64,000 bases of DNA, from positions 123 through 64,122 of the forward strand of contig LCMS01000010.1 in assembly GCA_001002765.1 (NCBI GenBank), in the 5' to 3' direction. Within the stretch, counting starts at the first letter, position 1. The number at the start of each line of letters is the position of its first letter. The stretch comes from Candidatus Uhrbacteria bacterium GW2011_GWE2_46_68 (lineage in GTDB: Bacteria > Patescibacteriota > Patescibacteriia > UBA9934 > GWF2-40-263). This document shows positions 1-10,401 of this stretch, piece by piece. The position numbers were made by a program, and so were the translations under genes. Below the pieces are notes generated by a model that was given only the letters and a program-made list of their open reading frames with translations, was not told the origin of the DNA and did not search any database.

Positions 1-220
1 GACCCCCTCATGCGATTCTTGAAAAAAATATGTGACCGGTTCGCGTAAGGTTCTTTGATCATCAAACCCGTAGGTCTTATCACCTTCTTTTGTTCCGCGA
101 AGAACAGCTGTGTGAAGTTTGCTGGGCATGCCTGACTCCTTTGGAAAGAACTAAAATGGATCGTCACTTCAAGAGTGTCCCCTTAAAGCAGCGGTGAAAA
201 AGGGACAGTCTTGCTGTCCC

Positions 221-1219
221 CTATACGTCGTGAGTAACCCCGTGACCATGATTGACACGGACTTGCGACCAAAATGTGCAATGATCTTGCGGCCGAACCC
301 TTACTTTTTCATCAAAAACCAATTGCGCAATCTCATTCTTTTGTCCGAAAAATTTCTCGAAATCCACAGAATCTGTCGAATTGAATACCGGAGCCACCTT
401 GTCGTACACGACCGTGGCACCCGGACATGAAGAAAATCCTTGCTCCTCCCAATTCCAGTGACGGGAAAGTCCCATCACACGATCTCCCACAAAAATCGCT
501 TCAGAAATAGCATGAGTCACAAGGAGAATGGTATGAGGTGCAGGTTTCCCCTGCCCCACAGCTTGAATATTTTCCTCGTAGAGAACAAGGAGCATACGCT
601 GCAAATCTTCACGCGTGGCCTCATCTAGTGCACCAAACGGCTCATCCAAAAGAAGGATTTGTGGTTTCATAATCAGGGCCTGGGCAATCGCCACGCGCTG
701 TCGCATACCTCCGGAAAGCTCGTGTGGATATTTGTGCACCGCATCCCCAAGACCAAATCGCACCAAGAGTTCTTCTGCATGTTTGAGATGTTCGCGCCGC
801 AAGCGTCGCCAAAATCCTGTCACTTGACCCCACATTCTCCTTGGAATGGTGGTCAGGTGAAGCTTGAGGCCAAACGCCACATTTTCCACGCTGGTCAAAA
901 ATGGATAGAGCCCGTAGGCCTGATACACAATGCCACGATCCGGACCTGGCCCAACAATCTCGGTCTCTTGCCCATCATAATTCACACTTACAATTCCTGA
1001 CGTAGAACGTGTGATGCCGGCGATGAGGTTTAGCAAAGATGTCTTTCCACACCCACTTGCACCAAGCACTCCAACGATTTGTCCGCGACCGATTGTGAAA
1101 TCCACCCCATGCAAAATATGCTGCTTCCTCACCTGAAACGATGCGTTTGAGACTGTAAGGATGGGCTTCACGAGACACCCCCCTTTGCGTACCAGGGGCA
1201 GAGCTTGCATTGAATCCAT
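221..1219 (-). CDS. ABC transporter ATP-binding protein, NitT/TauT (nitrate/sulfonate/bicarbonate) family
   Basis: Walker A GASGCGKTS, ABC signature LSGGMRQRVAIAQAL and Walker B LLLDEPFGALD in the 332-aa minus-strand ORF. It is immediately downstream of the permease and SBP genes on the same strand. Confidence 0.85.
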   Translation of the reverse strand: MDSMQALPLVRKGGCLVKPILTVSNASFQVRKQHILHGVDFTIGRGQIVGVLGASGCGKTSLLNLIAGITRSTSGIVSVNYDGQETEIVGPGPDRGIVYQAYGLYPFLTSVENVAFGLKLHLTTIPRRMWGQVTGFWRRLRREHLKHAEELLVRFGLGDAVHKYPHELSGGMRQRVAIAQALIMKPQILLLDEPFGALDEATREDLQRMLLVLYEENIQAVGQGKPAPHTILLVTHAISEAIFVGDRVMGLSRHWNWEEQGFSSCPGATVVYDKVAPVFNSTDSVDFEKFFGQKNEIAQLVFDEKVRVRPQDHCTFWSQVRVNHGHGVTHDV

Positions 1220-2016
1220 CGCATCCCCATGTCCATACCAAATCCAAACAGGGCAAGATAAGCAAGATAAGGGTAGACCACGTTCATGTTGAGCAATCGA
1301 GATTGCAGACGGATCCGATACCCGAATCCCACATCTCCCACCAAGACTTCAGCCGCAATGAGAAACACCATGGCCGGTCCGATCTGAAGCCTGATGGCAT
1401 CGAGAAGCTTGGGAAGAATCTGGGGGAACATGATACAAAAAATAATCTCAGTCGTACTCGCCCCAAGGGTACGGGCCTTATCAATACGCTCCTCAGCAAT
1501 ATCCTTAAGCCCCAAATAAATGGTCTGAGCCAAAGTGGGGATCACCCCAAAGGCAATGATCGCTCCGTACATCTTGAGTTCGGTTCCAAACAAAGTGAAG
1601 AACACTGCCATCATGGCTGTGGGAGGAATCTTTGCAAACAGAGAAAGGATCGGGAGGAAAAAGGCTTCCATCCATCGCCACACCCCCATGCTCATACCAA
1701 GAGCAAAGGCGATAAAGACTCCAATTCCAAGACCAAATCCCAGACGTGAAAGCGTGGCAAGCACATCTTCAACGATCCATCGGTCGCCTGTGCGCGGCTG
1801 GGCCGCAAAGATCTTGGAGATCCCCTCACTCATTTGCATCCATGTGGGAATCGTCGTGTCTGTGGGGTTGATCATATGCTGATGAATCGAAAGCCTGGTG
1901 TAGAGCGCAAGAAGAAGCAAGATGCTTGCGGTACCGATTACCCATGTTGCCTTACGGCTCATAGGCGCCCGAATACCTGTAAAGCATCGGAAAAGAAAAA
2001 AACGTTTTGTGGTCAC
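1168..2016 (-). CDS. ABC transporter permease (SsuC/TauC-like, BPD_transp_1)
   Basis: 282-aa ORF with multiple TM helices. It has an EAA-like loop (DIAEERIDKARTLGAS) typical of NitT/TauT permeases and overlaps the ATPase gene start by about 50 nt, as in an operon. Confidence 0.8.
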   Translation of the reverse strand: MTTKRFFLFRCFTGIRAPMSRKATWVIGTASILLLLALYTRLSIHQHMINPTDTTIPTWMQMSEGISKIFAAQPRTGDRWIVEDVLATLSRLGFGLGIGVFIAFALGMSMGVWRWMEAFFLPILSLFAKIPPTAMMAVFFTLFGTELKMYGAIIAFGVIPTLAQTIYLGLKDIAEERIDKARTLGASTTEIIFCIMFPQILPKLLDAIRLQIGPAMVFLIAAEVLVGDVGFGYRIRLQSRLLNMNVVYPYLAYLALFGFGMDMGMRWIQCKLCPWYAKGGVS

Positions 2017-2131
2017 AAGAACCTCCGGTTGGAAAGAACGGTTTTCCCTTAAGCCCTGAACACAAAATTAGTTCAAGTCTTAAGGAAAAGGGTTAGAGGT
2101 TTGCTCTAACCCGCGTGTAGGCGTGATTGGC

Positions 2132-3274
2132 CTACTTGTCAGGCGGAGGAATGATCGGGACATCCTGCGTGTAGACTCCCCCCCTCTGGACATCGAGCAT
2201 GTAGGAGGAATCGAAGACATAGGAAGGAGCAGTCGCCTCGGGTGTGCTCCACTGATGCCCATATCCGATCGTCGGAGACAAAGACACGATCTGGCGCCCC
2301 ACGCAGAACTGGCTCACAAGACCCATGGTCCCGGGGAGTCTACTTCCATCATACACGCCAAGCCCCAGGTCTGGGGTAGCGTAGAACTTGGTCTGCTTGA
2401 CCACGGTTTCCATGTCCTCAAGCCCCAGGTTGCTGAACTTGGAGCCGAGCGCAACGAGCATCTCGTTGTGACGGGCAGGGTCAGCCATGACCAGGTTGAA
2501 GGCGTAGTAGGCATCGATGACCGCACGAGCGAAGTTCTCACCGCCCGGCTTCTCGAGGCTTCCCCGCGCCATGACCACCATGTCGATCACCTCGCCGGGA
2601 ATCGTGGTGCTGTCGAAGAGCACATGCGTGTCAGCACGCCGCCGCAGGGTCTCGAGCACGAACGGATTCCAAACCATGATGGCTCGGATCTCCTGCTTCT
2701 GTTGAAGAGCCGTGGCGGCCGCGCCCGGATCCATGTTCGTGAAGGTGAAATCCGCAGGGTTGAGACCCTGGATGACCAGGTTGCGGGCGAACACGTACTC
2801 GGACACGCTCTTCGCCAGCCCGTACACAGGCACACCCTTCAGGTCATCCACGCTCTTGATCCCGCCATCCACGATCAGAGCGTCGGCCCCGAAGGATGTG
2901 GAAGTCGGAAGGATCGCGACCGTGGGTCGCGAGGCGGCGGGGATCAGGCTGTCCATGTTGGTGAGGGCTGCGGCATCGACCTCTCCGTTGCCATAGAGGT
3001 TGATGCAGGTGTCGTAGTCAGCTTCGCGCAGGACGATATCCACGCCCCAGCGCTCTTCGATCGGACCGACCTTGCCCTTGTCACCATCGATGATCCCGAT
3101 CTCGGAGGCAACCCCGAAGACGGACCAAGACGGGTACTCGCTCCAGGCGAGCGAGAAGCTCGGAAACTCGGCCGAAGGCTGTGAAGCCCCAGGATCGGTT
3201 GCCGGCGCATCCGCAGTCTTCGAAGAACAGGCGATGAGGAAACCCATGAGAGTCAGAGAGAACAGACGACGCAT
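2132..3274 (-). CDS. ABC transporter substrate-binding lipoprotein (NMT1/SsuA-like)
   Basis: The ORF track gives 2132..3427. The likely true start is the internal Met MRRLFSLTLMGFLIACSS (lipobox LIAC|S). The mature region resembles NMT1/THI5-type periplasmic binding proteins. It lies upstream of the permease and ATPase. Confidence 0.65.
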   Translation of the reverse strand: MRRLFSLTLMGFLIACSSKTADAPATDPGASQPSAEFPSFSLAWSEYPSWSVFGVASEIGIIDGDKGKVGPIEERWGVDIVLREADYDTCINLYGNGEVDAAALTNMDSLIPAASRPTVAILPTSTSFGADALIVDGGIKSVDDLKGVPVYGLAKSVSEYVFARNLVIQGLNPADFTFTNMDPGAAATALQQKQEIRAIMVWNPFVLETLRRRADTHVLFDSTTIPGEVIDMVVMARGSLEKPGGENFARAVIDAYYAFNLVMADPARHNEMLVALGSKFSNLGLEDMETVVKQTKFYATPDLGLGVYDGSRLPGTMGLVSQFCVGRQIVSLSPTIGYGHQWSTPEATAPSYVFDSSYMLDVQRGGVYTQDVPIIPPPDK

Positions 3275-3423
3275 GGAACACTCCTTCTGCGACGCGAAGC
3301 GACCAGGCTCCGCTTTGGTGAAATGAACGAAGGGCTTTGGAAAGCCCATGAGGGACGGTTGATCACCATAGTTGGAGGGTTTCCCCAACGCAGGTGGTAA
3401 AAAGAGGAAGAACGTAATCTCCC

Positions 3424-4170
3424 TCACGAAACGGTTTGCCTATACCCTTCTTGCCTGATGGCATGCGATCGCTGACTTTGATCCAATGTTTGCGCTCCGG
3501 CTTGCACACAGCGTTCCATTTCATCCACAATGCCATGCAATTCCATATCCACACTTTCCGCATGTTGAAGCGTGCGAATGCGAGTTAGAAGATCTCCAAG
3601 ACGCTCCACACTTGCCTGAACTTCTCCTATCACTTCTTCTCTGCGCGATTGGATCTTGCGGCGCACTTCGCGCTGCACAATCCCCTCGGCATCTTCAAAC
3701 AAATCATAGGAGATCTCGAGATAACGCACGGCATGGGCAAAAAGCTTATCAAACAAGGTAAGAAGATCTGCCCGCAGTTCATCATTGACACCCTTCCAAA
3801 GACGATCCTCATGCAAACGGCCGGCAATCGTTTCCAAATCACCCATGATGGTTTCGGTTCGATCATCACGATCGCGCGACAATTTTTCTTTGAGATCAAT
3901 CATGGCCTGCTTGCGCGCTTCTTGCACTTCATGTTCTTCTTCAGCCAACACGCCCTCGGTGATCTTTTCTCTGGCAAACAAGACGCGCAATGCCACGGCA
4001 GCTATGGCTCCGGTTGTACCCAGAATCCCTACCGCCAGCGGAATCGCCGGATTGGCAGCCACGAGAATCGCCATAAACCCCAGCATCCCGCCCGTAAACG
4101 GTGCCAGGGTCAGAGGATGACCCAAGAGGCGCTTGTACACCTCTCGCTTCCGTTGTTCGCGGGTTCGCAT
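3424..4170 (-). CDS. hypothetical membrane protein with N-terminal TM helices and long coiled-coil region
   Basis: 248-aa ORF. Hydrophobic segments (FTGGMLGFMAILVAANPAIPLAVGILGTTGAIAAVALRVLF) are followed by a charged heptad-like region rich in E/R/L. No recognisable domain. Confidence 0.45.
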   Translation of the reverse strand: MRTREQRKREVYKRLLGHPLTLAPFTGGMLGFMAILVAANPAIPLAVGILGTTGAIAAVALRVLFAREKITEGVLAEEEHEVQEARKQAMIDLKEKLSRDRDDRTETIMGDLETIAGRLHEDRLWKGVNDELRADLLTLFDKLFAHAVRYLEISYDLFEDAEGIVQREVRRKIQSRREEVIGEVQASVERLGDLLTRIRTLQHAESVDMELHGIVDEMERCVQAGAQTLDQSQRSHAIRQEGYRQTVS

Positions 4171-4179
4171 GGCTGCTCC

Positions 4180-5838
4180 TTAGTAGGACTTTTGGCCCAA
4201 AAGGAAACTGACGCTTTGGGACTCGCCACCCATGCCCACGGGAGGAGCCGCTTTGACGCGGATCCGGTGAGTGGGAATGCCTCGGGAGATGATCTGATCG
4301 GAAACGCTCTGTGCGCGGGCAAGCGCCAGCTTTTCGTTTTCAACCTGATCGCCGTCTGCACGCGCATGTCCCACCACGGTCAAGTAGAACGTGGGGTAGC
4401 TATGCAGTTGGCGCGCGATCTCATCCACGCTGCGCTGGCCCTGAAGGCTAAGCGCACTGGATGCCCGACGAAACTCGATCGCACAAATGCGCAAGTGCCC
4501 CACGGTCGAAAGCTTGTCCCAATCCTCGGCCGAAAGCTCGGGAAGAGTCTCGGCTACACGAACAGCTCCCAAATCTCCCTTGGGAACATCCACAACCCCA
4601 AGCTTGGAGCGAGGATGAAATCCTCCACTGTAGAGATCACGCAGCACGCCGTCGAAATAGAGTTCGCTTGGGTCTGCAACCGGCATGGCGGCAAACGCAC
4701 CTGAAGCTGTGAGCATACGCCCGATATTGAGAATCGTGTCGTGCAAGGTCGGAAGACCCGCAGACTCTCCGGTGGGAAGCAGACCAAACAGGGCATAGTT
4801 TTCCGTGGTGTTCCAAAAGCGAATTCCCTTGACCATGTTATGCGCTTCATCGCTTGAAATGATTTCTCCGGTCTTTTGACCGTCTTCGATGAGAAGAGCA
4901 GCAAACCCTTCATCCCCTCGCGACTGGTAGGAGTAGAGGGTTCGAAGATAAGCGGCAAGAACAACCTTTACCTGTTCAGGGTGATCGCGCAAAAATTCGC
5001 GACGGGCCAACAACACATCAACGATGATGCCGCGTACCTGGGAGGTATCCAGCAGACGATGCACGCCGGGAATCTTGAGCGACTTGGAAAGATAGGGCTC
5101 CCACAGAACAAACGCCTTGCGTTCGGTCGGCGAGGTGGCGCGCAAGAGATTGTAAATCCGCTCCTGGCTGGTCTCGGGGACAAACCAATCTTCGGGCATC
5201 TGGGGAAGGCTCATGTCTGCGCGCACCACTTGGACGAATGTCTCGCTGGGCGAGTCAGGCATGGCAACCACATGAGCGGTTGAGTGATCCAGGTCTTCGA
5301 TTGCGGCAAGTGCCTGCTTGTAGGCGACCATACCGTCTGCTCCGGCGCTTTCATCGATCGCCAGGACAATGGTTCCTGGGAACTGTTCGAGTTTGGCACC
5401 AGTCTTCAAGTTGGCATCAATCGTGATCACAGCCATATCCACATCACCCTTACGCAATGCCTTTTGACGTGCCGCGTAATCACCGCCGTCGTCAACGAGC
5501 TCGAGGGAAAAACCACTTTCGCGAAGTTCACCCGCAAACCCATCAGAACGGAAAACCGAATAGCCCTTGAAGCTGTCGGTGGCAATACGAATGGCATGCT
5601 CGTCAGATGACGTTTTCTTCACGCTTGTCTGTGCGATCAGATTGTCTTGCGCTGAAGGATGAATCACAAACTTCCACACGAGGATGCTCACAAAGGCAAG
5701 CAGAATGATGATCGCAGCACCTACAATGAGACGAAGTGAACGACGACCTTGAGAGGTAGGTTCCATGGAAGGACTCCTTGAGTGGGAAAGAAAGCCGGGT
5801 ATCAGCCGGCAAAAAAAGTTTCGGATTGAAAGGAACAT
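4180..5838 (-). CDS. OmpA C-terminal domain protein with N-terminal SBP-like (NMT1/SsuA-like) domain
   Basis: 552 aa. N-terminal TM helix. The central region is paralogous to the SBP at 2132..3274. The C-terminus (TVVGHARADGDQVENEKLALARAQSV...) matches the OmpA/MotB peptidoglycan-binding domain. The start may be the internal Met near 5766. Confidence 0.65.
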   Translation of the reverse strand: MFLSIRNFFCRLIPGFLSHSRSPSMEPTSQGRRSLRLIVGAAIIILLAFVSILVWKFVIHPSAQDNLIAQTSVKKTSSDEHAIRIATDSFKGYSVFRSDGFAGELRESGFSLELVDDGGDYAARQKALRKGDVDMAVITIDANLKTGAKLEQFPGTIVLAIDESAGADGMVAYKQALAAIEDLDHSTAHVVAMPDSPSETFVQVVRADMSLPQMPEDWFVPETSQERIYNLLRATSPTERKAFVLWEPYLSKSLKIPGVHRLLDTSQVRGIIVDVLLARREFLRDHPEQVKVVLAAYLRTLYSYQSRGDEGFAALLIEDGQKTGEIISSDEAHNMVKGIRFWNTTENYALFGLLPTGESAGLPTLHDTILNIGRMLTASGAFAAMPVADPSELYFDGVLRDLYSGGFHPRSKLGVVDVPKGDLGAVRVAETLPELSAEDWDKLSTVGHLRICAIEFRRASSALSLQGQRSVDEIARQLHSYPTFYLTVVGHARADGDQVENEKLALARAQSVSDQIISRGIPTHRIRVKAAPPVGMGGESQSVSFLLGQKSY

Positions 5839-5914
5839 TTCTTTAACCCGAGCTCACAGGAAAACCTATGGTCTCGGGAGAAAGGCCATCACCGTCTGTG
5901 ATGGCTTTGGGGGT

Positions 5915-6874
5915 CTAACCTTCGAGGATTATCCAGAGAAGGACGCCGAATACCCCGCAAATAACGATCATGAAAAAAAGAATCACCAGAAACGGAGTCT
6001 CCTCTTCTTTGACCGCTTCCGCACTCGGCTGGGATGGAGCGGCCGCCTGATCCACTTCCTCGGGAGGATCTTCCCCGATCGGATGGTTGCCTTGCACCGA
6101 AGTGCCAAGCCCCTTCACAACCGCCATGGCCACATCGGTTGAAAGTGGCGCGATGGTCAAGTAGGCATCAGTGGCGAGTTGCGGATCCCGCACAGAGGAA
6201 ACCTCAGCAAACACCTGACGCACGCGCTCTTCGAGTGCCTGCGCATTGTTTGCATTCTGATAGGTGTCGGCCTGGGTGGCCAAAGTGTGTTCAGTATTCA
6301 TGTCGATACCGACCGCGTGAATCAGGATCCCGCGCGAGCGAATCTCGGGCGTGAACCTTTCGACCATTTTTTCTTCTCGTGCCGGATTGGCCTGGCCATC
6401 GGTGAGCACCAAGAGGGTGTACATTCCCTCATTGTGTTGTGCCTCCCGCATGTACAGGAGTTCATCGGCAGCCGCCTTCATGAAGGTACCAAGCGGCGTG
6501 GATCTGTCCGGATTGATCGCCTGGAGAGATTGGAGAAGTGCAGCGTGATCCGAAGGTCCGAGCTTTTGGATCCATTCATACCGTTGTACACCGCTCATGA
6601 CGAGGACGCCGATATAGGTCTCCGGTGGTGCATTGCGGATCGCTTGCTCCAGGATGCGCTTGGCAGCGTCCATCCTGCTTTCTGATGCCTCTCCTCCCAT
6701 ACGCTCGTTCATGCTCCCCGAGGCATCGAGAAGCACGACAATGCAATCGTGGACACTCGTCTTTTCGATTGGCCGCGTGACCATCATTCCATCCATTTCC
6801 AAACCTGCGAAGGTCGGAAGACAGAAAAGCATCGAGACGAAAAGCAGACAAAGGATGCGACTGATGCCTCCCAT
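5915..6874 (-). CDS. von Willebrand factor type A (vWA) domain protein, secreted/membrane anchored
   Basis: Signal peptide MGGISRILCLLFVSMLFCLPTFAG. MIDAS motif in IVVLLDASGSMNE. C-terminal hydrophobic anchor (FLVILFFMIVICGVFGVLLWIIL). Confidence 0.7.
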   Translation of the reverse strand: MGGISRILCLLFVSMLFCLPTFAGLEMDGMMVTRPIEKTSVHDCIVVLLDASGSMNERMGGEASESRMDAAKRILEQAIRNAPPETYIGVLVMSGVQRYEWIQKLGPSDHAALLQSLQAINPDRSTPLGTFMKAAADELLYMREAQHNEGMYTLLVLTDGQANPAREEKMVERFTPEIRSRGILIHAVGIDMNTEHTLATQADTYQNANNAQALEERVRQVFAEVSSVRDPQLATDAYLTIAPLSTDVAMAVVKGLGTSVQGNHPIGEDPPEEVDQAAAPSQPSAEAVKEEETPFLVILFFMIVICGVFGVLLWIILEG

Positions 6875-6884
6875 GACTGCCTCC

Positions 6885-8792
6885 TTAGAAATCGAAGTCT
6901 GCGGTGGTGGATGCCTCGCCGGTCACACGCGTGAGAACGAACTCCACGCGGCGATTGGCTGCAGCTTCTTGCTCACTGCGTGGGCGGGCGACCATGGGCT
7001 CGCCAACACCTACACCATCAAAGGCGATCTGACTCTCGTCGATCCGCTTCCCTTTCTCTTCCGCAAACTGAAGGAAGGAGGAACGCACGGCCTCTGCCCG
7101 GTCACGGGTGAGCTTCTGTGCTTCCTGCAAGGTCTCACGAGGATTGGCGCCTCCGGTCTTGAACGTTCCGCTTGAAACAATCGCAATCACCTTGGCAATG
7201 GCCTCCAAAGCAAGCGGTTCACCATTGTAGAAGTACTGGTAGTCCGTCGGGCTCGTGCCTGTGCGCTTGAGCATACCGTTTTCGATCGCTGCATTGACGA
7301 AGTCACGCAGCACAGCCGTAGGATCCGCATGTCCGCGAATGACGAGGACCGCGCGGGGATACTTGTCGAGAAGCGTGAGAGCACGATCATACTGATCGCG
7401 ATACTGATCCTCCGAAAACGTCATCTGATTGGGCTCAAAGCTGATCGTGAAGGAAAGCATGCTGCGGCTGCCGAAACCTTCGGAGTCAAGGCCGCTGATC
7501 TCGGTGCGAACCGCTTCGGCATTGAACCTGGGCTTGGCCTCTACCGTGAGAGACTCAGACAAGGACTGCTTGAAGATCTCGTCTTGCCAGAAGGTATCCG
7601 GCACGCGGGCAAAGGCAATGGACTTGGTGGTCTGTCCCAAGCTCTCGGCCATCCTGTTTGCTTGGGTGGCGAGCGCATCGAATCCGTGTTCGTTTTTGGG
7701 ATCGATGAACGCCAGGTTGCCGGCATAGCCGACGAACTGGGCATCAAGGAGAAGTCCGTGAGCATCCTCGGAGGTGGGGAGCACACCCGTGCCCAGGATT
7801 TCCTGGGACAGGGCGAGGAGCCCCTGATACTCGGTCGAGCCGGAGACCTCATGCGCCTTGCGAAGCCTGATCACGGCTTCCACGGCTTCGAGGTAAGCGA
7901 CCGCAAAGGCGCGCACCTCATTGACATGGTCACGATAATAGGTCGGGTTGACCCAGTAGGTATCGGCGATCGTGAACACGCGCTGGGCCGTGGACACGAG
8001 AACACGGGCGTTCTTGACCGTGCCTTCAGCACCTGTGCCAACCACATCGAGACCGCCGGTCAAACCGATCATGTCGGGCGTGATCGCAAAGGCCGCGTCG
8101 GCCTGGCCGCTGCGCAGCGCTTCGATCGGACTTCCCTTGCCCGTCAGGGTATCGCACCACACGATCTGCACATCGGTCCACGACAGATGATCGTCGGTCA
8201 AAATCCCATAGAGCATGGACATGTGCGGGCCGCCGCGCTGGAGCGCGACGCGCTTACCCTTCAGATCCTTGATGGACTTGATCCCCTCTTGCACAACCAG
8301 ATGGTCGCCCTGCGACCAGGTCATCTGGAACGCGTAGAGGGGGCAGGTCGCGGGATCCGCGCACAGCCCCTGCTCGAAGATGGCATTGGTGACCATCTCA
8401 TAGGTGCCGCGCAGATAGGGTGTACGCCCTTCCTTGTAGGCCTGCGCCTGGAGCTTCATGTCATCGCCGGCAGCCAGCTGCAGGTTGAGGCCGTGCTTTG
8501 CAAAGATCGTGCCTTCGCGCGTGCGAAAACCGCCGTTGCCGTAGAAGGTGGCGTAGTCCCCACCCCAGGCGATGAAGCCGGTCTGGATGGGAGTGCCGTC
8601 AAACACCTTCCCTTGGAGGAAAGCGACGTCGCTTGGTGCGACTGCCTGCTCCTGTGAAGGCTTGATCTCGGGAGAAACGTTCTGAGAGGTTCCTGGCTGC
8701 GAGTTGTCGATCGGCATGCAGCCGACAAGGACGAAGATCAGGATCGCCAGAAAAAAACGGAGGTAGGAACAGGAAAAATAACGAGTGCACAT
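6885..8792 (-). CDS. OmpA C-terminal domain lipoprotein with SBP-like domain
   Basis: The ORF track gives 6885..8882. The probable start is the internal Met MCTRYFSC...LVGC (lipobox). The SBP-like middle region is paralogous to 2132..3274 and 4180..5838. The C-terminal OmpA-like domain reads RGHADPTAV...RDRAEAVRSSF...RRVEFVL. Confidence 0.65.
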   Translation of the reverse strand: MCTRYFSCSYLRFFLAILIFVLVGCMPIDNSQPGTSQNVSPEIKPSQEQAVAPSDVAFLQGKVFDGTPIQTGFIAWGGDYATFYGNGGFRTREGTIFAKHGLNLQLAAGDDMKLQAQAYKEGRTPYLRGTYEMVTNAIFEQGLCADPATCPLYAFQMTWSQGDHLVVQEGIKSIKDLKGKRVALQRGGPHMSMLYGILTDDHLSWTDVQIVWCDTLTGKGSPIEALRSGQADAAFAITPDMIGLTGGLDVVGTGAEGTVKNARVLVSTAQRVFTIADTYWVNPTYYRDHVNEVRAFAVAYLEAVEAVIRLRKAHEVSGSTEYQGLLALSQEILGTGVLPTSEDAHGLLLDAQFVGYAGNLAFIDPKNEHGFDALATQANRMAESLGQTTKSIAFARVPDTFWQDEIFKQSLSESLTVEAKPRFNAEAVRTEISGLDSEGFGSRSMLSFTISFEPNQMTFSEDQYRDQYDRALTLLDKYPRAVLVIRGHADPTAVLRDFVNAAIENGMLKRTGTSPTDYQYFYNGEPLALEAIAKVIAIVSSGTFKTGGANPRETLQEAQKLTRDRAEAVRSSFLQFAEEKGKRIDESQIAFDGVGVGEPMVARPRSEQEAAANRRVEFVLTRVTGEASTTADFDF

Positions 8793-9176
8793 GGCGCCTC
8801 CTTGGGAAACGGACGAAGTGTCCGATTGGTGAGTTGTTGACCCCTTGTAAGGAGCGTCAGAAGAGAGGTTTTTTGTCTCCAAACCCCTTCGTTCTGAACG
8901 CGAGACCTTAGGGTTTTTTGCCTAAAATGTCAACGATCTGTAGGCGAATCTTTAAGGAAAAAAACAAAAAAAGCCCATTTTTGGCCTCTTCTTGTTTATC
9001 CCTTTATCACACAGGATAAAACAGCAATGTTTGTAAAAAAATTCCACTTTGAATATTTGGTCTGATAATGTTCGTGATCTTTTAGGATAGCTACAGATGT
9101 GGTGTCAGGTCTGACACCAAAATACAAGAATACAAGGCAAAACAAAAAAGAACCTATAGGCTCTCTTTGAAAATTT

Positions 9177-9818
9177 CTATTCCCTTTTGGACGACCCTTG
9201 CTCTAACGTTTTATCTAAAAGGAACGTTTCGTCTCCTGCAAGTGAAGCAAGTGCGATGAAAACTGATCCGGACAACCTCACGGGAGTTTTAAGAATTTGT
9301 CCTAATGTCACGGCTGCCGCACGATGATGTCCTTCGACACAAACAATTTTTTTATGATCTTCACGCACAAGGCCTATCAACTCGGTCGGAGCAGGAAACT
9401 GCTTCATGAGTGACACAACGGCCGAATGATGAAGAAAAAAATCTTGCGGTTCGGGCAGGGCCAGCAACTCGGCAAACGATACTGTATTTTTCTCTTCTGT
9501 ATATTTCTGCCATCCGTTAAACGGCCCCATCAAAAGATTTGGCAAAAAAACTTGTGGATCTTTCACTTCGTATAATGCCCAAGCACGATCTTGAAGATGA
9601 AGTTGCAAAGCGGTGTGCACGCGCCAACTCTCCCAATTTGGCCACCCTTTGATCCTGGTCGCACACTCAACCCATGAAAAATTGTGTGCCTCGCGCTCTT
9701 TCCATCCTGCAAACACTTCTCCCCAACCAAGTGAACGGACAAAAGAAAGTTGTGATTCAAAATGGAACATAAGGAGGCTTCCAGTTCTTTTGAAAAATGG
9801 CCATGGAAAATAAGTCAT
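9177..9818 (-). CDS. hypothetical protein
   Basis: 213-aa ORF with local low-GC codon usage. No recognisable motifs. Confidence 0.4.
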   Translation of the reverse strand: MTYFPWPFFKRTGSLLMFHFESQLSFVRSLGWGEVFAGWKEREAHNFSWVECATRIKGWPNWESWRVHTALQLHLQDRAWALYEVKDPQVFLPNLLMGPFNGWQKYTEEKNTVSFAELLALPEPQDFFLHHSAVVSLMKQFPAPTELIGLVREDHKKIVCVEGHHRAAAVTLGQILKTPVRLSGSVFIALASLAGDETFLLDKTLEQGSSKRE

Positions 9819-10281
9819 GCCATCTTTTGTTTATGAATATTTCCTCTCTCATCCGCCCCTCCTCTACAAACCCCAAAAACTTATACAAACATATCGCTCG
9901 TTTATTTGCATCCACAACTCCCAAGTTCACCTTGTGTAATTTGAGTGTGCAAAATGCATAATCCAAAAGCCAAATCAATGCTTGCTTCCCATATCCTTTT
10001 CCGCGATACGCATCCTCTCCGATTGCGATAAAAAGTTCCGCGTTCCTGTTCATCTTCTGGATATTCGATAAGCCCATAAAACCAATGGGTTCATCGTCCA
10101 CACAAAAAGTAAAAAACTTTTTTTGTGAATTCTTTTTATAAGCCTCAAACCATTTTCTTTCTTTGGCAAGAGTTGTTTTCTCCCCAGAACAATCTCCAAT
10201 ATACTGACTGACCTGTGGGTTATTGAGCCACTTTACGCGAAGAGGAATATCAGATGATTTGTGTGGACGTACCTGCAACAT
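9757..10281 (-). CDS. GNAT family N-acetyltransferase (RimJ/RimL-like)
   Basis: Acetyl-CoA binding motif region (FIAIGEDAYRGKGYGKQALIWLLDYAF). The ORF track extends to 10353, but that would overlap the tRNA. The Met at MLQVRPH (ATG at 10279-10281 minus) is the more plausible start. Confidence 0.65.
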   Translation of the reverse strand: MLQVRPHKSSDIPLRVKWLNNPQVSQYIGDCSGEKTTLAKERKWFEAYKKNSQKKFFTFCVDDEPIGFMGLSNIQKMNRNAELFIAIGEDAYRGKGYGKQALIWLLDYAFCTLKLHKVNLGVVDANKRAICLYKFLGFVEEGRMREEIFINKRWHDLFSMAIFQKNWKPPYVPF

Positions 10282-10325
10282 AGGGTATCTTCTCACGGGT
10301 GCACACACCGTAAATTTTAGATAGT

Positions 10326-10401
10326 TGGTCGGGCTGGCGGGACTCGAACCCACGGCCTCTGCGTCCCGAACGCAGCGCTCTACCTGCTGAGCTACAGCCC
10401 G
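10326..10401 (-). tRNA. tRNA-Pro: tRNA-Pro (anticodon CGG)
   Basis: The reverse complement reads CGGGCTGTAGCTCAGCAGGTAGAGCGCTGCGTTCGGGACGCAGAGGCCGTGGGTTCGAGTCCCGCCAGCCCGACCA. It has a 7-bp acceptor stem with a C1-G72 pair (typical of bacterial tRNA-Pro), a D-loop AGCTCAGCAGGTAGAGC, an anticodon stem-loop CTGCG-TTCGGGA-CGCAG (anticodon CGG), a T-arm GGTTCGAGTCC and an encoded CCA. Confidence 0.8.

Follow-up and report, generated by a model that had tools for sequence, protein, structure and literature searches.

Why should two proteins that each join a substrate-binding protein (SBP) domain to an OmpA-like domain lie beside an ATP-binding cassette (ABC) importer that has an SBP of its own? This question is raised by a 64,000-nucleotide (nt) stretch of contig LCMS01000010.1 (positions 123 to 64,122; assembly GCA_001002765.1), hereafter the window. 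In it, seven collinear genes on the minus strand (221-8792) encode a NitT/TauT-like importer, a von Willebrand factor A (vWA) protein, a helical membrane protein and the two fusions. We lettered these genes A to G from the 3' end of the operon to its 5' end. The operon runs beyond the window edge, as an eighth gene, X, begins at bases 129-1. By comparing this locus with its relatives in other genomes, we found that G-F-E-D constitutes a near-invariant core to which the importer is an optional attachment, and that the core is wired more often to membrane-stress proteins. The window copy itself was acquired horizontally and belongs to a reduced clade of the form G-F-E-D-C-B-A-X, which lacks the PspA-like and AAA+ partners of its relatives. 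The genes and their domains, with lengths in amino acids (aa) and transmembrane segments abbreviated TM, are these:

1..129, minus strand: X, first ~43 aa of a 346-aa radical-SAM-like protein, truncated by the window edge; last operon gene in the D-C-B-A-X clade
221..1219, minus strand: A, ABC transporter ATPase, NitT/TauT-like (PF00005, 1e-29)
1168..2016, minus strand: B, ABC importer permease, BPD_transp_1, TauC/SaoP/NtrB-like (PF00528, 1.4e-13; TauC, 2.4e-25)
2132..3274, minus strand: C, the importer's own lipoprotein substrate-binding protein, lipobox LIAC
3424..4170, minus strand: D, 248-aa inner-membrane protein with a predicted TM hairpin and cytoplasmic helical bundle
4180..5766, minus strand: E, 528 aa, with N-terminal TM anchor, type-2 SBP-like domain, linker and OmpA-like domain
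4747..5604, minus strand: SBP-like (periplasmic binding protein type 2) domain of E, ~aa 55-340
4183..4473, minus strand: OmpA-like domain of E (PF00691), ~aa 432-528
5915..6874, minus strand: F, 319-aa vWA protein with signal peptide, vWA domain, acidic/Pro-rich tether and C-terminal TM anchor
6263..6742, minus strand: vWA domain of F, aa 45-204, with an intact metal-ion-dependent adhesion site (MIDAS)
6885..8792, minus strand: G, 635-aa lipoprotein with lipobox LVGC, low-complexity linker, SBP domain and split OmpA-like domain
7593..8585, minus strand: NMT1/SsuA-type SBP domain of G, ~aa 70-400
6918..7460, minus strand: OmpA-like domain of G, ~aa 445-625, interrupted by a ~65-aa insertion

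One genome per species was scanned with the E family alignment, which yielded 257 genomes with a relative. The best 80 of the 257, all of them metagenome-assembled genomes, fell in Verrucomicrobiota, Poribacteria (many complete chromosomes), Hydrogenedentota, Planctomycetota, Sumerlaeota, Desulfobacterales and a few members of the Candidate Phyla Radiation (CPR). Word-indexed homologue searches had grossly under-counted the families (23 relatives of E and 3 of D), and this was corrected by the exhaustive search and the genome scan. Open reading frames (ORFs) in 88 loci were labelled by hidden Markov models (HMMs) derived from the window proteins, giving 84 unique loci from at least eight phyla. 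The order and strand of G-F-E-D were constant in essentially all 84, and D followed E in 76 of 79. G and F were both present in 70 of 71 informative loci, and the co-occurrence of SBP::OmpA fusions with vWA genes, which the preliminary description of this DNA had proposed to look for, is thereby borne out. Downstream content was counted in the 55 loci with at least 9 kb after E, in which the following patterns were among those seen:

After E, D-C-B-A-X (window type): 5 of 55 loci
After E, D-Y (Poribacteria, no importer): 17 of 55 loci
After E, other single patterns: 5 of 55 loci

No importer was found within 9 kb in 21 of the 55 loci, 17 of which are from Poribacteria, many on complete chromosomes. 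Three loci carry the partners P and Z described below without an importer, in the order G-F-E-D-P-Z or G-F-E-D-P-Y-Z. Because the core occurs without an importer and its downstream content varies, the importer is optional. Thus, while the envelope module that had been described beside the transporter is anatomically real, its framing as an accessory of that transporter is not supported, given the loci that have none within reach.

The gene directly after D is PspA-like (P) in 32 of 55 loci. P is a divergent PspA/Vipp1 protein: 21 of 42 members match PF04012 (best 7.6e-9), and the family profile matches solved Vipp1/PspA at 3e-4. In most P-type relatives the operon then closes with a tandem (inactive plus active) AAA+ ATPase, Z, which matches CDC48 at 9e-19 and CdvC at 1e-8. 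The window genes are orthologous to those of loci bearing PspA and AAA+. No PspA-like ORF was found in the whole 64-kb window, nor was any Z homologue, and on the parent contig A is followed by X and not by an AAA+ gene. A third partner, Y, is a 560-600-aa cytoplasmic protein with a conserved HDxWGHQWQE motif and no Pfam match. It lies directly after D, in the importer's place, in Poribacteria loci (L052 12509-14305 and 23 further loci, mostly Poribacteria) and between P and Z in L076 (13407-15080) and L036. We considered the 598-aa Poribacteria form of Y as a degenerate AAA+ protein and rejected this, since it has neither a Z-family match nor a Walker A motif and represents a separate family.

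Several further features were observed in these loci. P ends in a nearly invariant K-x-S-x-L-P-E motif after a variable linker; by analogy with MIM motifs, it could be a docking peptide for the adjoining AAA+ ATPase. A DUF4159 protein lies just upstream of G in 17 Poribacteria loci (e.g. L052 4343-6859). Three loci (Poribacteria L052 and L074; Planctomycetaceae L015) have a sigma-54 enhancer-binding protein upstream of G, whose architecture resembles that of PspF with an extra N-terminal domain. A rare exception to the four-gene core was seen in a 6.87-Mb genome (L004 10001-15995), where G-F-E stands without D and is followed by a protein with collagen/fibrinogen C-terminal-like domains and a two-component system.

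The slot after D is filled differently on plasmids. A tblastn search of G against plasmids retrieved six large Vibrio plasmids, including pSEA1 and pAM7, with the operon order hypothetical protein, A, G-like, F, E-like, 257-aa protein, TelA, C, B. The operon spans L089 7374-16745 on pAM7 of Vibrio rotiferianus and L090 6408-15770 on pSEA1, and adjoins PRTRC plasmid genes. HMMs derived from the window recovered G, F, E, C, B and A in it. The 257-aa protein has a D-like layout of TM hairpin plus helices and aligns with the D family by hhalign (92.8%, E 4e-7). In all six plasmids, TelA (PF05816, 3.3e-49) directly follows this D homologue, in the position held elsewhere by the PspA-like P. TelA contributes to resistance against envelope-acting antimicrobials and is regulated by LiaR in Listeria, as is the PspA homologue LiaH (PMC11765107). 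The presence of two unrelated envelope-stress effectors in the slot after D is the strongest contextual clue to function. Three of the six plasmids were typed as mobilizable, pSEA1 carrying a MOBH relaxase. The plasmid operon is also the only version that we found in cultured organisms.

What do the core proteins consist of? E and G had been taken as fusions of SBP-like and OmpA-like domains, and searches with Pfam, NCBIfam and family profiles confirm this for both: their N-terminal regions are SBP-like and their C-terminal regions OmpA-like. The OmpA domain of E matches PF00691 at 4.4e-11 (43.4 bits versus a cut-off of 27.2), and the E family profile matches about 50 solved OmpA-like domains (e.g. 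YiaD, 3e-15). The best matches are YiaD, Pal and OmpA, with MotY and PomB at 0.004-0.01. The N-terminal ~300 aa of E are binding-protein-like (TIGR03427, 3e-9; an orthologue reaches 1.4e-14 against the same model), and members of the family bear PF13379/PF09084. The preliminary description began this gene at 5838 and called its product TM-anchored. The anchor is confirmed, a TM helix being present in 82 of 82 orthologues, whereas the start most likely lies at 5766, as judged from a 528-aa database protein of 100% identity and the family alignment. The TM helix of the window E contains no acidic residue (neither Asp nor Glu).

For G, the SBP domain matches PF09084 (NMT1) at 5e-10 (40 bits versus a cut-off of 20.5), and the family profile matches SsuA. 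As a single sequence, the OmpA domain of G scores weakly and below threshold (0.0067, 17 bits), because the conserved insertion of ~65 aa splits it. The G family profile matches solved OmpA-like domains in two pieces, 430-475 and 542-605, which flank the insertion, and several G orthologues have precomputed PF00691 matches. G is very strongly conserved, with a mean column identity of 58% across phyla; more than 1146 database clusters (90% identity) match it, and the best 120 listed are mostly full length with ~45-52% identity. A true lipoprotein with a low-complexity linker is confined to the D-C-B-A-X clade, while G of the other clades has a plain signal peptide.

The two OmpA-like domains differ at the wall-binding site. 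The Asp of the GHxD motif and the Arg of the RA motif are the canonical wall-contact pair, which binds diaminopimelate in AbOmpA and Pal. In G, the Asp (GH[SA]D) and the Arg are each kept in 73 of 73 orthologues, and N-x-R-V-E-F is conserved. In E, the Arg of RA is kept in 82 of 82 orthologues, and the Asp position is occupied by Arg (GH[AT]R) in 82 of 82. Judging from these residues, G and E probably differ in how their OmpA-like domains bind the wall. The SBP-like domains, for their part, contain invariant polar motifs (DExxGAD, SPSE, LWEP and NTxENY in E; WGGD, TWSxGDH and GGPH in G), suggestive of a conserved pocket in each.

We compared the SBP-like domains of C, E and G by hhalign. C and E align with 96.7% probability (E 3.5e-10, 283 columns), E and G with 89% (E 2e-6, 210 columns), and C and G with a marginal 45% only. 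The comparison supports the homology of all three domains claimed at first, the direct C-G alignment being its weakest part. A BLAST alignment of E with G spans the SBP C-lobe, the linker and the OmpA domain. Because the alignment crosses all three, the fusion is older than the duplication, and E and G are paralogues from an ancestor that was already fused.

F matches PF00092 (VWA) at 7.8e-12 (46 bits versus a cut-off of 23.8). Its MIDAS motif, DxSxS...T...D, is essentially invariant among orthologues: the first D, both S and the T are kept in 71 of 71 and the last D in 70 of 71, in agreement with the first assignment of F as a vWA/MIDAS protein. The description of F as secreted needs amendment: there is a signal peptide, but the protein is not free. 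Hydrophobic segments lie at aa 1-27 and 290-319, and a C-terminal TM segment is present in 67 of 71 orthologues.

D, described at first as TM plus coiled-coil, is indeed a helical membrane protein, with an architecture more specific than that. A basic helix at the N terminus is followed by a two-helix TM hairpin (~aa 19-66) and a ~180-aa cytoplasmic five-helix bundle, with a conserved D-x-D-P-R-T-E loop at aa 100-106. The AlphaFold model (150-sequence alignment) has a pLDDT of 90.6 and a pTM of 0.75; the deeper alignment raised pLDDT from 63. An exhaustive HMMER search gave 497 D-family representatives at 50% identity, of which the 150 listed are mostly 240-260 aa long. No Pfam family is common to these 150, and none of them matches PspA_IM30 or Snf7 at E<=0.01 among the Pfam families listed. 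The D profile has no match below 0.04 among PDB sequences, and no ESCRT-III protein was among its matches. Hhalign of D against the neighbouring PspA-like P family gave <1%, and TelA shows no homology signal with either P or D. Foldseek of the D model against PDB gave nothing at E<=0.001; the best matches were designed helical proteins, with IncA at 0.31 and CdvB2 at 0.79. Hhalign of D against E. coli PspA and human CHMP4B was discarded as uninformative, since the positive control (P versus PspA) failed as well. The idea that D is an ESCRT-III/Snf7 protein, drawn from the literature on an analogous protein, is thus unsupported by Pfam, PDB profile, hhalign and Foldseek searches, which were all empty, and not disproved. 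Given its model and the absence of Pfam and PDB matches, D is best assigned to a new family that combines a TM hairpin with a five-helix cytoplasmic domain. By predicted topology, G, F, E and C lie outside the membrane, and the D bundle, P, Z, X and A inside.

The importer, as the preliminary description had it, is a NitT/TauT-type system whose SBP, permease and ATPase (C, B and A) are recognised by profile. C scores 1.6e-43 against TIGR03427, 'putative urea ABC SBP', yet its 149 bits fall short of the cut-off of 334, and it is not an equivalog. C also matches the SsuA family (9e-15) and, among PDB sequences, SsuA and TauA (5e-5 to 6e-4). The best NCBIfam matches of A are taurine and nitrate ABC ATPases (8e-50 and 1e-48), both under the equivalog cut-offs. 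Since all SBP matches fall below such cut-offs, a substrate cannot be assigned. As for X, the ORF at 129-1 is matched by the X-family HMM at 3.7e-11, and the full-length protein (parent contig, L007 15638-16678) matches TIGR01210, a RaSEA-like radical SAM model, at 3.5e-20, below its cut-off. X carries a conserved Cx4Cx2C motif and occurs in 5 of 5 complete D-C-B-A-X loci and in six P/Z-type loci. It is distantly related to the archaeosine enzyme RaSEA.

How did this module come to be in the window? The host belongs to the CPR/Patescibacteria, since E matches a protein of Candidatus Uhrbacteria bacterium GW2011_GWE2_46_68 with 100% identity. The module has a GC content of 54.8% versus 46.5% in its flanks, the largest excess among the loci compared and one that is near zero in most genomes; window positions 2000-9000 lie at 55-58% GC versus 44-47% in the rest of the window. 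A second Patescibacteria contig (L091/L092, 10.6 kb) can be aligned to the parent contig over the module only, at 75-79% nucleotide identity, the flanks being unrelated. The shared DNA spans from ~216 nt upstream of G to ~30 nt past X (L007 6759-16709, the edge at L007 6759 corresponding to window position 9008). In a neighbour-joining tree of G plus E, the window copy groups with the other D-C-B-A-X loci and has a long branch. The GC excess, the second CPR copy confined to the module and the clustering with D-C-B-A-X loci together indicate that the module was imported as a unit, already reduced.

Candidate regulatory elements within and upstream of the module are:

2090..2112, minus strand: terminator-like hairpin in the gap that separates C (SBP) from B (permease), 9-bp stem plus T-run (pattern match)
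8905..8933, minus strand: candidate promoter of the module, TTGACA, 17 nt, TAAGGT, read from the sequence and kept in the second CPR copy (L091)
8966..8993, minus strand: terminator-like hairpin just upstream of the candidate promoter, 10-bp stem plus T-run, kept in both CPR copies

The hairpin at 2090..2112 may be an attenuator; terminator-like hairpin sites in the region are no more numerous than in shuffled sequence. A stricter consensus scan gave no promoter at 8905..8933, which is accordingly a putative assignment.

Other observations concern the surroundings of the module. A 23-nt palindrome-containing sequence, GTCAGACCTGACACCACATCTGT, lies upstream of G (window 9093-9115, minus strand), and a second copy with 87% identity lies just downstream of X (L007 16941-16963), so that the copies bracket the module; three tandem 18-nt repeats adjoin the second copy (L007 16714-16773). 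A chance match of this pair is only modestly unlikely (p ~0.07, a rough estimate), and both copies fall a little beyond the DNA that the two CPR contigs have in common. A tRNA-Pro (CGG) gene at 10326-10401 (minus strand) was rejected as an integration site, as it lies ~1.3 kb past the module boundary with two low-GC genes between; the longest-ORF call of a neighbouring GNAT gene (9757-10353) overlaps it. A reading of the edge of the second CPR contig as an IS30-type transposase tail was not confirmed. Just beyond X, at L007 17083-18087 (minus strand), is a 334-aa ORF of 62.5% GC with no Pfam match, which occurs in no other fetched locus except L008, a second recovery of the same region, and which may be a second foreign gene. 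Within the module, long antisense ORFs (350-440 aa) lie opposite C, D/E and G at 2123-3184, 3649-4704 and 7329-8657 (plus strand). They are most likely by-products of high GC, the homology evidence all favouring the minus-strand genes.

What, then, might the core do? The best-supported reading, which we put forward tentatively and as something short of probable, is that G, F, E and D form one peptidoglycan-tethered complex for envelope sensing or scaffolding, coupled through D to membrane-stress effectors and often working with an importer. E would be anchored in the cytoplasmic membrane, and G would be a lipoprotein in the window's clade and a soluble periplasmic protein in the others, each pairing a putative solute-receptor (type-2 binding-protein) domain with an OmpA-like domain of presumed cell-wall-binding function. 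F would be tethered to the membrane, its MIDAS probably clamping an acidic residue on another protein, the presumed partner being E or G. In concert, G, F and E would link the membrane with peptidoglycan and signal a small ligand or, alternatively, the geometry between membrane and wall. D, with its predicted TM hairpin and cytoplasmic helical bundle, would be the only core part to reach the cytoplasm, and as an adaptor it may relay the periplasmic state to cytoplasmic membrane-stress effectors or dock them. In most lineages the effector would be the PspA-like protein, recycled by the Cdc48/Vps4-class AAA+ ATPase; on the Vibrio plasmids it would be TelA. The same solute, or a related one, would be imported by the NitT/TauT system, which has an SBP homologous to the receptor domain of E. 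The window's clade, in this reading, gave up PspA and AAA+, retained the importer and gained the radical-SAM-like X. The idea of ligand capture or sensing anchored at the cell wall, suggested from the start, remains a live one.

Several points weigh against this proposal. Without the canonical Asp in its OmpA-like domain, peptidoglycan binding by E is uncertain, and in both E and G the SBP-like domain could have decayed into a scaffold. D shows no similarity to PspA, Snf7, TelA or known adaptors detectable by Pfam, PDB, Foldseek or hhalign searches. In the literature, we found no experimental work on any member. The window's own clade lacks PspA, AAA+ and TelA and always has the importer; for the window copy, the link to stress effectors is extrapolated from relatives, and a transport role fits equally well. 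A bolder version of the proposal, which we consider rather unlikely, pictures a widespread and hitherto unrecognised bacterial machine that spans the envelope: wall-tethered receptors would gate D, a new class of membrane adaptor, and D would recruit an ESCRT-III-type polymer of the PspA-like protein, to be recycled by the Cdc48/Vps4-class AAA+ ATPase, the window copy being a stripped-down derivative. If true, bacteria would have a counterpart of the ESCRT-III/Vps4 pair into which an extracellular sensor is built.

Other explanations account for parts of the evidence. E and G could be wall-tethered accessory receptors that capture a scarce solute and pass it to B/A, with F and D as assembly factors. 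The homology of the E receptor domain with C, the match of both to one NCBIfam model and the presence of the importer in all five complete loci of the window's clade speak for this, and a small-genome CPR organism would gain from scavenging. We nevertheless hold it to be doubtful. The core has no importer within reach in the 21 loci counted above, including the 17 of Poribacteria, G-F-E-D-P-Z loci join it to PspA and AAA+ without a transporter, G is no more than marginally similar to C, and D, the invariant MIDAS protein and the PspA/TelA neighbours would be left unexplained. For the window copy, whose clade has no effectors, a transport-centred role is nearly as good as the sensing reading. 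Alternatively, G, F and E could act as a structural staple, a Pal/Lpp-like tether of the cytoplasmic membrane or periplasmic components to peptidoglycan in which the SBP domains are mere scaffolds. Each system has two OmpA-like domains, one of them on a membrane-anchored protein, a vWA/MIDAS domain is a typical protein-protein clamp, and apart from a short segment the SBP parts match no solved SBP sequence significantly. Such a staple is unlikely in view of the invariant polar motifs in the SBP domains of both proteins, as expected of a conserved pocket, and of the frequent linkage to an importer with a homologous SBP, which is hard to explain without a ligand.

A mobile system of envelope-level defence or conflict (against phages or bacteriocins, or for resistance to toxic anions), built on Ter/TelA/TerY plus phage-shock logic, would fit the location on large Vibrio plasmids near backbone genes, half of them mobilizable (pSEA1 with its MOBH relaxase), the GC-foreign island in the window, the different contexts in two CPR genomes and the TelA or PspA-like neighbours; F also matches TerY weakly in PADLOC (0.0094). 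We think this improbable. That match is marginal, G, E, D and X have no significant match in PADLOC (D reaches a marginal 3.5e-4 with LeoBC over a coiled-coil stretch), the module is of native composition in most genomes, and no nuclease, toxin or other typical effector accompanies it; moreover, the idea overlaps the envelope-stress reading and does not exclude it. The preliminary description had also raised a vWA adhesin and a MotB-like stator. An adhesin by which an episymbiotic CPR cell attaches to its host would draw on the fact that vWA domains can be adhesins and that CPR bacteria have no outer membrane, so that F would be surface-exposed in this host. It is very improbable: the overwhelming majority of hosts are free-living diderms, in which F lies in the periplasm on its tether to the cytoplasmic membrane, and the module reached the CPR recently. 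The idea that E serves as the peptidoglycan-anchored arm of a stator like MotB/PomB, or of a force-transducing tether, is effectively refuted. Its appeal lies in the outline of E (N-terminal TM helix and C-terminal OmpA-like domain) and in one database homologue named 'flagellar motor protein MotB' at its source. Against this, no MotA/ExbB/TolQ-type partner was present among the annotated genes of the inspected loci, the TM helix of the window E has no acidic residue, an SBP-like domain of ~300 aa intervenes between that helix and the OmpA domain, and the best OmpA matches are YiaD, Pal and OmpA, those to MotY and PomB being just 0.004-0.01.

How does the G-F-E-D core relate to known systems? 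The closest description is in a comparative-genomics paper (Ravi, Aravind and co-workers, mSystems 2024, PMC11237479), which noted PspA/TM-Snf7/AAA+ operons with ABC and PBPb-OmpA genes (PBPb being a periplasmic binding-protein domain), exemplified by OGG56892.1 of Handelsmanbacteria. Its authors proposed that OmpA could bind peptidoglycan and PBPb the transported solute, and that membrane remodelling would be coupled to solute transport. Like the extended form described here, that operon has a PspA-like protein, a TM-anchored helical protein, a classical AAA+ ATPase (inactive plus active), an ABC ATPase, a permease and a binding-protein::OmpA fusion. Unlike ours, it has one PBPb-OmpA protein, no vWA protein and another gene order, and G-F-E-D was not recognised there as a core that also stands without a transporter. 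The window copy shares with it the ABC ATPase, permease, PBPb::OmpA and TM helical protein, and lacks PspA and the tandem AAA+. The Snf7-like nature of the TM protein in that operon was not confirmed for D. Our literature searches gave no description of the G-F-E-D core, its vWA protein or the D family beyond this note on related operons, which have so far been noted only computationally; the system is largely uncharacterised.

Classical stress modules such as PspBC-PspA-PspF of E. coli, LiaI-LiaH of B. subtilis and TelA (Listeria lmo1967, RK2 klaB) likewise place a small membrane protein beside a soluble helical effector, and the PspA-like protein or TelA after D and the AAA+ gene in the same operon are points of likeness. 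D, by contrast, shares no Pfam family with PspB, PspC or LiaI, the AAA+ protein is of the Cdc48/Vps4 class while PspF is a sigma-54 activator, and the classical modules have neither wall-anchored binding-protein fusions nor a vWA protein. In Ter/TerY systems, a vWA MIDAS protein and TelA co-occur, as in the Vibrio plasmid version; unlike these systems, ours has no TerD, TerC or TerB and no kinase/phosphatase triad, and its TerY score is marginal.

The OmpA-like domains of E and G are of the PF00691 type, as are Pal, YiaD, YfiB and the OmpA C-terminal domain, the best solved relatives being YiaD, OmpA-family proteins and Pal. Unlike Pal or YiaD, they are fused to SBP-like domains of ~300 aa, with the Asp replaced by Arg in E and the domain split by ~65 aa in G. 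E resembles MotB/PomB in having an N-terminal TM segment and a C-terminal OmpA-like domain and differs in its large SBP-like insert, the missing TM Asp and the absence of a MotA-like partner in the loci seen. By domain content, C, B and A are ordinary members of the group that includes SsuABC, TauABC, NrtABCD and the TIGR03427 'urea-carboxylase-associated' SBPs, and the NMT1/SsuA-type fold signature of NitT/TauT-family binding proteins is seen in C and E and, more distantly, in G. Canonical systems of this family have one free or lipid-anchored SBP, whereas here there are wall-binding fusions and the importer is dispensable for the core. Archaeal ESCRT loci can include an SBP (ProX), and a 2025 review (PMC7619361) states that a Vps4-like regulator of PspA is seemingly absent in bacteria.

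Cumulatively, the significance of these findings is as follows: 1) a core of two wall-binding receptor fusions, a MIDAS protein and a new membrane-protein family occurs across the Planctomycetes-Verrucomicrobia-Chlamydiae (PVC) group, Poribacteria, Hydrogenedentota, Desulfobacterales, some CPR bacteria and Vibrio plasmids; 2) in its full form a PspA-family protein and a classical AAA+ ATPase stand together, which would offer a place to test the regulation of bacterial ESCRT-III-type polymers; and 3) the pSEA1/pAM7 version puts the system in culturable, genetically tractable Vibrio hosts. For the biology of the CPR, the window copy clearly exemplifies the import of a diderm-type envelope module into a lineage that bears a wall and no outer membrane.

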